From: Sphyrna mokarran
Taxonomy: Eukaryota
Reading direction: 5' to 3'
DNA: 64,000 nucleotides
NCBI GenBank assembly: GCA_024679065.1
Contig: JAGIQG010000016.1
Span: 11,160,001-11,224,000 of the forward strand
Shown here piece after piece: positions 10,199 through 61,877 of this stretch (within the stretch, counting starts at the first letter, position 1; every line of letters begins with the position of its first letter). The notes beneath the pieces were generated by a model. The model had not been told where the DNA came from. It saw nothing but the letters and a program-made list of their open reading frames with translations, and ran no database searches. A program made the position numbers and the translations under genes.

Positions 10199-10213
10199 AA
10201 AACCAAAGTAAAG
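10199..10213 (+). CDS. Microexon A1, 15 nt (ENQSK)
   Basis: ctgattgtattacag|AAAACCAAAGTAAAG|gtaatt. Confidence 0.7.
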
Positions 10214-61200: not shown

Positions 61201-61877
61201 GCAATGGCTATCGATATTAACTGGATTCAAGTACTGTGCGGCAACATGGATTTCGATGGAATTCATATTGTCTGTCTTCAATTTATGTGAGTGCCCGATG
61301 TGCACTGAAACATTTTCGAAGTAACTTACAAAGTAGGAAAACTACCTTTACGAATATAATAGCTTGCCCTGGTGAAATATAATTAGGCAAAAATTTATGC
61401 ACATCATACACTGAGAATAATTGAAAGTCATGAGAAAAGACACCCTCGGGCATTTTGCCTGTTTAATGTTGTTTGAACGGCCATTAATTAGACAATGCTT
61501 TGCATGCAATCAGAATACGAAACATAATCCCACAGATAGATAGAAAGATAATAAAGAGAGAGGGGGTGTGTGTGGAGGGAGAGGTGGGGGTAGTAGAGAT
61601 ACTGCGAGAGAGGGAGAGCGGGAAAGATTGAGCGGGAGAGAGAAAGAGTGTGTGTGTGTGCGCGTGTATGTGAGAGAAAGAGAGAGAGGACAGAGAGTCA
61701 GAGAGACAGAGAAATAATTTGATAGATGGATAAACAAATATGACAACGTTGTTTGGCTTGTTCCAATTATTTGTAAGTTGAAATCCGGAAATAAAACGTT
61801 TTTTTTTCCCTTATTAAGTGCTTCATTTCGGTTCTTTCCAGAAATAGTTGCGCTGATAAAAGAACTTCAAGATGCTG
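10199..61877 (+). CDS. Internal part of a multi-microexon gene encoding a long coiled-coil (identity unknown; 5' and 3' ends outside window)
   Basis: 17 AG/GT-flanked, 3n-length, phase-1 microexons splice without stops to [164 protein letters not shown]; recurring sizes 15/27/36 nt. Confidence 0.8.
11470..11720 (+). mobile_element. Degenerate tRNA-derived SINE with CR1-like tail
   Basis: gcggcac..cacagtgcaagggacc head, ggccatgctaaa core, atctatgaatcta tail. Confidence 0.5.
13155..13465 (-). mobile_element. tRNA-derived SINE (HE1-like) with CR1-like 3' tail
   Basis: acagcacggcaaacaggcccttcggccc tail; tgtgggaggaaaccggagcgcccggagaaaaccc core also seen inverted near 36000 and 52720. Confidence 0.8.
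13600..14410 (-). mobile_element. CR1 LINE 3' fragment, relatively young
   Basis: 242-aa [18 protein letters not shown]...[15 protein letters not shown]...[11 protein letters not shown]. Confidence 0.95.
16729..16761 (+). CDS. Microexon A2, 33 nt ([11 protein letters not shown])
   Basis: cactgttacag|ATTTAAGA...GATACCC|gtatgg; DL..K.K pattern shared with B2. Confidence 0.55.
17389..17424 (+). CDS. Microexon A3, 36 nt ([12 protein letters not shown])
   Basis: gttttattttgcag|AATTAAAT...GACATAG|gtgggg. Confidence 0.75.
19081..19107 (+). CDS. Microexon A4, 27 nt (EKKRKEKET)
   Basis: aatctacaaaacttcag|AAAAGAAG...GAAACAG|gtactt. Confidence 0.65.
19290..20040 (-). mobile_element. CR1 LINE 3' fragment, degenerate
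   Basis: ORF 19478-19870 VQQAIRKAN...[12 protein letters not shown]. Confidence 0.8.
20460..22592 (+). mobile_element. Young 5'-truncated CR1 LINE (ORF2 RT domain to 3' tail), few frameshifts
   Basis: 377-aa ORF with [35 protein letters not shown] motif; (TTCTATG)n tail. Confidence 0.97.
23594..23629 (+). CDS. Microexon A5, 36 nt ([12 protein letters not shown])
   Basis: tttattattttgtag|AACTCACC...GAACTGG|gtaggt. Confidence 0.8.
24850..26020 (+). mobile_element. CpG-rich element, possibly CR1 5'UTR/ORF1 (esterase-like) remnant
   Basis: [15 protein letters not shown]...VVCC resembles CR1 ORF1 RG.D...CG....R.VCCLPGA; GC content above flanks. Confidence 0.35.
26028..27760 (-). mobile_element. 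CR1 LINE, degenerate
   Basis: ORF 26832-27221 SGVPE...[17 protein letters not shown]; catagaatca tail at 26028. Confidence 0.85.
29226..29252 (+). CDS. Microexon A6, 27 nt (EEKLEKKVK)
   Basis: ttcttcttaatgatatacaacag|AAGAAAAG...GTAAAAG|gttatt (weak donor). Confidence 0.6.
31967..31993 (+). CDS. Microexon A7, 27 nt (EFNSLQETC)
   Basis: ttctatcttttgttag|AATTTAAC...ACGTGCC|gtaagt. Confidence 0.75.
32828..32854 (+). CDS. Microexon A8, 27 nt (xADLEQKIS)
   Basis: tttctatctcttacag|AAGCTGAT...ATTTCAG|gtgaaa. Confidence 0.75.
33917..33952 (+). CDS. Microexon A9, 36 nt ([12 protein letters not shown])
   Basis: ttttatggttcacag|AACTAAAA...AAGTTAG|gtgagc. Confidence 0.8.
35870..36030 (+). mobile_element. 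Degenerate SINE
   Basis: tgggtattctccgggtgttgccgtttcctcccaca core. Confidence 0.6.
39730..39744 (+). CDS. Microexon B1, 15 nt (EKEKK)
   Basis: tgattgaatctattgacag|AAAAAGAAAAGAAAG|gtaagc; flanks resemble those of A1. Confidence 0.75.
39770..40330 (+). mobile_element. Old CR1 3' fragment
   Basis: [12 protein letters not shown] motif in ORF 39777-40004. Confidence 0.6.
41120..41146 (+). CDS. Microexon B2, 27 nt (DLEAKEKID)
   Basis: ctacttttatctgtataag|ATCTCGAA...ATCGATG|gtgagg. Confidence 0.7.
42495..42530 (+). pseudogene. Microexon B3 lacking its expected acceptor (..[10 protein letters not shown]); decayed, or spliced from an upstream AG as a 60-nt exon (42471-42530)
   Basis: Consensus donor GG|gtaagt; 3' end AACGGCATGG resembles A3 AACGACATAG; no AG at -27, -30 or -36; 5' boundary uncertain. 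Confidence 0.45.
42905..43445 (+). mobile_element. CR1 LINE 3' fragment
   Basis: [22 protein letters not shown]...RGDLIETYK; tatgttcttatg tail. Confidence 0.93.
44732..44758 (+). CDS. Microexon B4, 27 nt (DEETREKDS)
   Basis: aatattactaaaattccag|ATGAAGAG...GACTCAG|gtaatg; acceptor resembles that of A4. Confidence 0.75.
44816..44963. other. Assembly gap (148 N)
   Basis: Run of n. Confidence 0.99.
46227..46262 (+). CDS. Microexon B5, 36 nt ([12 protein letters not shown])
   Basis: ctttcttctctccttatag|AAATAGCT...AATACAG|gtgaga. Confidence 0.8.
47090..47900. mobile_element. Two old CR1-like fragments (minus about 47090-47440; plus about 47480-47900)
   Basis: ggcaatgaaatccacaagttcaccac (3' region, minus); gatgacacaaagttggg-like DDTKLGG remnant (plus). 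Confidence 0.5.
50658..50681 (+). CDS. Microexon B6, 24 nt (VSCKQKKT)
   Basis: catttatacctgtatag|TTTCCTGT...AAAACAG|gtaaac; fills the slot expected for a 27-type exon; contains an A-run. Confidence 0.45.
52595..52925 (+). mobile_element. tRNA-derived SINE with CR1-like tail
   Basis: tgggtttctcc..tccggtttccttccacaccctaaagatgtg core; gggccgaaggacctgtttcacgtgctgt tail. Confidence 0.75.
53773..53808 (+). CDS. Microexon B7, 36 nt ([12 protein letters not shown])
   Basis: Branch-like actaac upstream; catccaaatcttag|AAGCAGAC...GAGTGTG|gtaagc. Confidence 0.75.
54950..55980 (-). mobile_element. Old CR1 fragment containing an internal tandem duplication
   Basis: ggagaccaaaac (reverse of QFWSP), ccttgtagagctgc (reverse of QLYK). 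Confidence 0.65.
55398..55747. repeat. Tandem duplication, 2 copies of about 175 bp (55398-55569, 55570-55747)
   Basis: Near-identical copies; ATCATG at the start of each copy and after the second. Confidence 0.92.
57460..58030 (-). mobile_element. Old CR1 3' fragment
   Basis: ORF 57736-57933 RFVRTLHGM...[11 protein letters not shown]. Confidence 0.6.
59100..59126 (+). CDS. Microexon B8, 27 nt (EQNDAAKSK)
   Basis: tttccattcattattag|AACAAAAT...TCAAAAG|gtatta. Confidence 0.7.
61545..61715. repeat. Degenerate GA/GT low-complexity microsatellite
   Basis: Directly visible. Confidence 0.85.
61842..61877 (+). CDS. Microexon B9, 36 nt ([12 protein letters not shown])
   Basis: catttcggttctttccag|AAATAGTT...GATGCTG|gtaagt. 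Confidence 0.85.

Follow-up and report, generated by a model that had tools for sequence, protein, structure and literature searches.

Micro-exons of a very large Sphyrna mokarran gene predicted to encode a coiled-coil rod with a B30.2 cap

Introduction

In the sections cited here, chicken BG genes are described as encoding, behind an Ig-V domain and a membrane segment and with no B30.2 domain, a long coiled-coil tail whose many small exons each begin with a split codon; the tail exons measure 21 nt (some 18 or 24) and number 13-36 per gene, and exon number varies across a tandem family shaped by unequal crossing-over (PMC5938342, PMC4046983). Butyrophilins such as BTN3A1 and BTN2A1 have heptad exons followed by a terminal B30.2 exon; the heptads are few, and the cited part of the literature adds Ig domains and a membrane segment (PMC4046983). 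In nebulin, as far as the cited account goes, simple repeats are arranged in higher-order blocks, and partial blocks are poorly tolerated (PMC7863720).

Cartilaginous fish have NCBI-predicted coiled-coil plus B30.2 proteins of the same B30.2 subfamily as the gene described below, built from 12- and 9-residue units: XP_055510696 of Leucoraja, XP_038668997 and the 945-aa P0181 of Scyliorhinus, and XP_042192744 of Callorhinchus. These models differ from the present gene in being shorter or partial, and carry automatic names (TRIM39-like, A33-like, nuclear-pore anchor-like). No papers on them were found. A word-indexed protein search for long relatives returned none, or only a TRIM, and an alignment search added the one 945-aa catshark model; no model covering the region studied here was seen in the protein searches. 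We found no earlier description of such a gene or module in the main text of open-access papers.

Here we analyze a 64,000-nt stretch of the Sphyrna mokarran genome (the window; G000:C668:11,160,001-11,224,000) together with its surroundings, for which extended coordinates are counted from the window's first base. A first-pass annotation had interpreted the window as two copies, block A and block B, of a nine-exon module. Our reading, which we consider likely, is a different one: the 16 micro-exons supported in the window come from the 3' portion of a very large gene whose predicted product is a long rod of coiled coil with a B30.2 cap; block A represents the final copy of a module of eight exons and 77 residues (11 heptads), and a plain 36+27 tail begins with block B.

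Results

The whole window was read, and both strands were scanned for short exons bounded by AG and GT. All 18 candidates of the first-pass annotation were located where it had placed them (Table 1). Sixteen of them, all but A2 and B3, are flanked by AG and GT, read open in phase 1 and have collinear counterparts in two sister genes. B6 has a tandem acceptor (AAG/GAG) that allows either 27 or 24 nt; both paralogues are 27 nt long, and B6 is therefore taken as 27. A lone 36-nt candidate on the minus strand (window 1011-1046) has strong splice sites and atypical residues (EISESGMETSLS), and is probably due to chance.

Table 1. Candidate micro-exons of blocks A and B, in window coordinates.
Exon	Position	Strand	Description
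A1	10199..10213	+	15 nt, phase 1, ENQSK; opens 77-aa module and closes a 27-27-36-15 cassette
A2	16729..16761	+	33-nt candidate, doubtful; weak donor, missing from both sister genes
A3	17389..17424	+	36 nt
A4	19081..19107	+	27 nt
A5	23594..23629	+	36 nt
A6	29226..29252	+	27 nt
A7	31967..31993	+	27 nt, Cys at end; heads a 27-27-36-15 cassette; non-G last base, GTAAGT donor
A8	32828..32854	+	27 nt, EADLE type
A9	33917..33952	+	36 nt; closes the eight-exon 231-nt module
B1	39730..39744	+	15 nt, EKEKK; closes the last cassette
B2	41120..41146	+	27 nt; B1 and B2 together 14 aa, two heptads
B3	42495..42530	+	unsupported as exon: no AG acceptor, no paralogue
B4	44732..44758	+	27 nt; 9 residues identical to gene-3 paralogue
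B5	46227..46262	+	36 nt; plain 36+27 tail zone begins here
B6	48671..48697	+	27 nt; tandem acceptor
B7	53773..53808	+	36 nt
B8	59100..59126	+	27 nt
B9	61842..61877	+	36 nt; last exon before the window edge, no module end

These exons belong to a far longer series. Across 1.344 contiguous Mb, a splice-plus-body exon model trained on plus-strand exons made 249 calls on the plus strand versus 5 on the minus strand at a score above 16, mainly of 27, 36 and 15 nt and in phase 1 throughout. Every exon is phase 1-1 with a length that is a multiple of three, so that the frame survives the duplication or loss of any one of them. The window's gene (gene 1) spans at least 790 kb and contains about 170 phase-1 exons of 27, 36 or 15 nt; 172 called exons, a count that misses weak exons and includes a few false calls, lie upstream of the first B30.2 exon, reach back to about -608 kb and encode 1,693 aa. 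Pairs of 27 and 36 nt run on past the window edge to about 173 kb, and the series ends in a phase-1 terminal B30.2 exon at extended 178,453-178,970 (L012:4453-4970), 114 kb downstream of the window end. Exons with a GC donor occupy expected slots of the series at extended -17788, 578957 and 607832. Self-BLAST of 864 kb showed almost no intron-level duplication near the window, no tRNA or Rfam match was found within it, and open-frame listing with loose domain patterns gave noise only among the matches listed. The joining of the exons, the status of A2 and B3 and the limits of the gene are as read from the DNA.

The window series finds its best collinear partner in gene 2 (11.40-11.88 Mb), where 16 exons match with a score of 57, compared with 24-34 for 12 size-preserving shuffles. 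Gene 3, on the minus strand and not part of the training set, gave 65 calls versus 0 on the opposite strand over 220 kb; it holds all 16 exons, with A followed by B, and its B30.2 is 62% identical. Genes 2 and 3 both repeat the module, the A-then-B order and the terminal exon. Besides that of gene 1, the contig carries five B30.2 exons of the same subfamily, three of them outside genes 2 and 3, at 11.93, 13.72 and 14.32 Mb.

With A2 left aside, block A reads 15-36-27-36-27-27-27-36, which is 231 nt, 77 aa or 11 heptads. Genes 2 and 3 each carry two tandem copies of this series of sizes, the last one corresponding to A, and five full modules are present across the three genes. All 10 pairs among the five modules beat random partners (p 0.03 or less), the pairing by position of the previous module with the A module ranks 1 of 144 permutations, and a tree splits the previous set from the A set with UFBoot 99. 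The first-pass proposal of an old duplication of a multi-exon module starting with a 15-nt exon is thus upheld for A as a copy and not for B as the second copy. In gene 1 the upstream module is incomplete, and the clear repeat is the cassette 27-27-36-15, the most distinctive part of the module. Three cassettes occur per gene, nine in all; the other three exons of the one that A1 closes lie 3.7-4.7 kb upstream of the window start (-4684 to -3721). The first exon of the cassette ends in a non-G base in 9/9 cases, as against 31/187 of all 27-nt exons, and the nine cassettes cluster with those at the same position, not with those of the same gene (identity 0.59 vs. 0.51), with weak inner nodes in the tree (UFBoot 30-60 for cassettes iii and iv); several weak cassette heads were added by hand from relaxed scans, which makes the cassette and spacer tests, the collinearity score and the ranking of A8-A9 partly circular. 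The grouping of modules and cassettes by position rather than by gene implies that module duplication preceded gene duplication.

In the chimaera (holocephalan) model XP_042192744, 22 matches to the 12-aa profile were found versus at most 6 in 300 shuffles, spaced mostly by 12 or 21; since 12- and 9-residue units occur there too, the unit likely predates the split between sharks and chimaeras. The most recent expansion seen in gene 1 is a young zone at C668 10.55-10.66 Mb (L131-L139, L088), where near-identical 27-nt exons (EKELEEAEK type) lie between 36-nt exons.

One 36-nt exon plus one 27-nt exon gives 21 residues with a heptad pattern. Positions 2, 5, 9 and 12 of 36-nt exons are hydrophobic in 0.88, 0.89, 0.87 and 0.67 of 132 exons, and position 4 of 27-nt exons in 0.78 of 184. 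The 71 spacers between 36-nt exons comprise 46 with one 27 (register shift 0), 8 with one 15 (shift 3), 7 with three 27s (shift 4), 3 of the form 15-27-27 (shift 0) and 7 others. Stutters and stammers, shifts of 4 and 3, are, in the cited portion of the coiled-coil literature, the insertions that come nearest to the intrinsic period of the helix (PMC4786415). Shifts of 0, 3 or 4 account for 18/25 irregular spacers (0.72, or 0.82 with 3 of the 25 left out), compared with 0.30 after shuffling and reached in 0 of 20,000 shuffles, although these spacers are not independent, since the three genes are paralogues. The remaining 7/25 break the rule, and missed exons are possible there. The distribution suggests, as far as sequence can tell, selection on register rather than on length; the selection on rod length proposed earlier does not stand as such and is better restated as conservation of the heptad register.

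The excess of 0/3/4 shifts might also reflect shared ancestry, the module sizes being frozen accidents of a few old duplications with no selection on register. The 25 spacers may stem from perhaps five or six independent events, which lends this account some weight; yet in each gene the same small set of spacer types arose at separate points along its length, and a lone extra 27 (shift 2), though the simplest duplication, is rare (3/71). We regard it as rather unlikely.

The terminal exon matches Pfam SPRY/B30.2 (E 2e-11), with TRIM58 and BTN3A1 as best PDB matches; the closest named single-domain matches are from cartilaginous fish. A look for sequencing runs matching the B30.2 exon and its 3' flank listed none, which says nothing about expression. 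Small heptad-coding exons precede the B30.2 exon, with a 21-nt candidate ahead of it in genes 1 and 2. For the Ig-C exon, 0/28 PF22705 matches fell in C668 8.5-14.4 Mb (88/88 candidates scored), the BTN-type Ig-C matches of the genome lying mostly on another contig. For Ig-V, 0/150 scored V-set matches, out of 1,261 candidates, lay in the region, with 9.58-10.54 Mb sampled. No Ig family was found in 51 motif-bearing frames picked from 4,717, and no RING or B-box in 102 open frames before gene 2 or in three relatives, where Pfam gave SPRY alone. At about 91-113 Mb of G000:C1548, B30.2 exons and BTN-type Ig-C exons form a large cluster, with one member of the window's subfamily at 101.4 Mb.

A scan of ATG-led hydrophobic exons for a signal or membrane exon of gene 1 gave weak candidates only, none convincing. 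Two relatives start with a hydrophobic stretch, which suggests a signal or anchor; some annotated relatives have no hydrophobic N-terminus. A weak candidate first exon, MLLIASVSL with a phase-1 donor, lies at C668 9,496,682 on the minus strand (L193) and resembles the hydrophobic starts of the skate and chimaera relatives. Exons of BG size (21 nt) occur at C668 9.65-10.51 Mb (plus strand) and 9.40-9.43 Mb (minus strand), near what appear to be the 5' ends of two head-to-head arrays, and the occurrence of ELACLQKAE exons at both 10.316 Mb and 10.425 Mb suggests that a duplication happened recently.

In samples, plus-strand exons, among them the 21-nt exons of 9.65-10.51 Mb, occur back to 9.52 Mb and may belong to the same gene. 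A tentative extension of our reading, possible rather than probable, is a single transcription unit of about 1.8 Mb (9.52-11.34 Mb) with at least 300 micro-exons, whose product would be a rod several hundred nanometres long, anchored or secreted, with B30.2 at its tip. The exon-size grammar of this unit would pair 27-27-27 stutters with 15-nt stammers and set hinges or supercoil, so that discontinuities of the coiled coil would be written into, and duplicated as, exon modules. Alternatively, the array could be made up of a number of shorter genes or of alternative transcripts, B30.2 being joined only to the last part, as the annotated relatives (models of 200-1,700 aa with short isoform differences) and the unseen 5' end, with 9.58-10.54 Mb covered by samples, would allow. 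We think this unlikely: no further B30.2 exon turned up from 8.56 to 11.34 Mb, the exon series extends from 10.55 to 11.34 Mb, and the order from the module to B30.2 is shared by genes 2 and 3.

The relationship of B to A was examined at the level of exons, flanks and introns. Position-matched A and B exons had been said to pair; in six size-matched real exons per comparison they are no more alike than random family partners (p 0.18, 0.67 and 0.82 in the three genes), and all eight size-matched log-odds are below zero, whereas five B exons compared with gene 2 score +2 to +13. A2-A6 against B2-B6 ranks 6/32. A8-A9 against B8-B9 ranks 50/86, the best partner of A8-A9 lying just upstream of the window. 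A dot plot of A against B contains 15 matches and no diagonal; the five that fall below E 0.001 all belong to repeats that occur 78-105 times in 1.34 Mb, and the other 10 are short (E 0.04-0.46). The acceptor likeness claimed for exon 1 is borne out (rank 4 of 281), and A1 and B1 are true homologues; that claimed for exon 4 ranks only 70 of 281. The reported equality of 264 nt disappears, with A2 doubtful, B3 without an acceptor and B6 at 27 nt. The real exons sum to 231 nt in A and 231 nt in B1-B9 because each consists of three pairs plus 15+27.

Two copies of a nine-exon module would require A2 and B3, either real or as relics, to bring the blocks into register, and both are absent from the two sister genes. 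A2 has an AG acceptor; its 27-nt core ends CAG|AT, and the sole in-frame donor is weak (CCC|GTATGG). It scores 5.3, below the 5.6 of a chance candidate in the same intron, and the best relaxed scores in the matching introns of genes 2 and 3 are 1.6-1.8. At 33 nt it would be neutral in register (12+5+11 = 28) with Leu at two core positions, and it is 63% like the gene-2 B2 exon over 27 nt; A2 may yet be a real exon. The body of B3 falls in the top 1.3% of 1,157 background 36-mers and is followed by a good donor, but TGA stands before it instead of AG; the best relaxed scores in the corresponding introns of genes 2 and 3 are 4.0 and 10.0, the latter from a 24-nt candidate unlike B3. When both candidates are counted in, the A/B diagonal ranks 4th of 144 within-size permutations (random-partner p 0.10), a result that, like the homology of A1 and B1, favours this model. 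Against it, each of the two exons would have to be lost twice independently, A7-A9 match the upstream cassettes while B5, B7 and B9 are most like the downstream tail, and B3 would give a register shift of 5, otherwise present only at two spacers without a called exon. The sister-gene comparisons largely refute the model, which we hold to be very unlikely. B is no copy of A, and position 61877 is not its end, with the 27/36 series passing that point; B as a bounded module and B7 as the homologue of A7 are rejected, and the specific A/B duplication should be dropped.

Six multi-copy repeats, presumably LINE/SINE-like, lie in the window at 3415-4187, 13155-14419, 20476-22599, 42904-43441, 52444-52936 and 62606-63775, and explain all strong A-versus-B dot-plot matches; those at 20476-22599 and 62606-63775 look like close copies by eye. 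An intronic tandem repeat at 55398-55753 consists of two copies of 180 nt with 90% matches. Elsewhere, retroelement frames occur at L144:7738-8322 and L135:2477-3085 (Pfam integrase core and LINE-type endonuclease).

Between genes 1 and 3, differences at codon positions 1/2/3 number 53/29/71 (138 codons, p 0.0005), and outside repeats just four alignments to gene 3 exist, all of them exons. By this comparison of sequences, the exons are under selection. Decay of the window's copy as a pseudogene, to which the weak A2 donor, the B3 without acceptor and the upstream module that is incomplete relative to genes 2 and 3 might point, is extremely unlikely given that 16/16 shared exons keep splice sites and open frames while the introns no longer align, that third-position differences are in excess and that the B30.2 frame of gene 1 is intact.

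Discussion

The window's gene resembles chicken BG genes, as the cited sections describe them, in its small split-codon exons, coiled-coil tail and membership of a tandem family; it differs in exon size (27/36/15 nt), in exon number (about 170 or more), in its higher-order module and in its B30.2 end (PMC5938342, PMC4046983). By analogy, it may work like a BG tail with a butyrophilin-type B30.2 attached. As the searches gave no Ig exon, we file it under neither BG nor BTN. As with the super-repeats of nebulin, a higher-order repeat has been duplicated as a block, with no homology claimed; in the account cited, nebulin repeats bind actin and tropomyosin, whereas the constraint proposed here is coiled-coil register (PMC7863720).

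Growth of the array may have proceeded by unequal crossing-over, acting first on exon pairs, then on the 77-aa module and then on whole genes. Selection would hold the heptad register, with 27-27-27 as a shift of 4 (stutter) and a lone 15 as a shift of 3 (stammer); stutter and stammer would cancel inside the module and the final 15-27-27 spacer would shift by 0, so that the register is kept. Paired chains are predicted to form a rod at least 1,700 residues long, about 250 nm at about 1.5 A per residue; it would keep putative ligand-binding B30.2 domains well away from a signal or anchor at the N-terminus, and core-position cysteines could cross-link the chains if the rod is extracellular. The rod, the pairing of its chains, its location and a B30.2 ligand are what we infer from the predicted protein.

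If the 1.8-Mb unit is real, its exon number would be close to the largest known; titin has 363 exons. On our main reading, cartilaginous fish possess a gene family of half-megabase to megabase size that is likely hard for gene predictors because nearly every exon has only 5-12 codons. Such a family represents the BG/butyrophilin design extended by an order of magnitude, and its hundreds of exons in at least six paralogues offer a natural data set for relating coiled-coil register to exon duplication.
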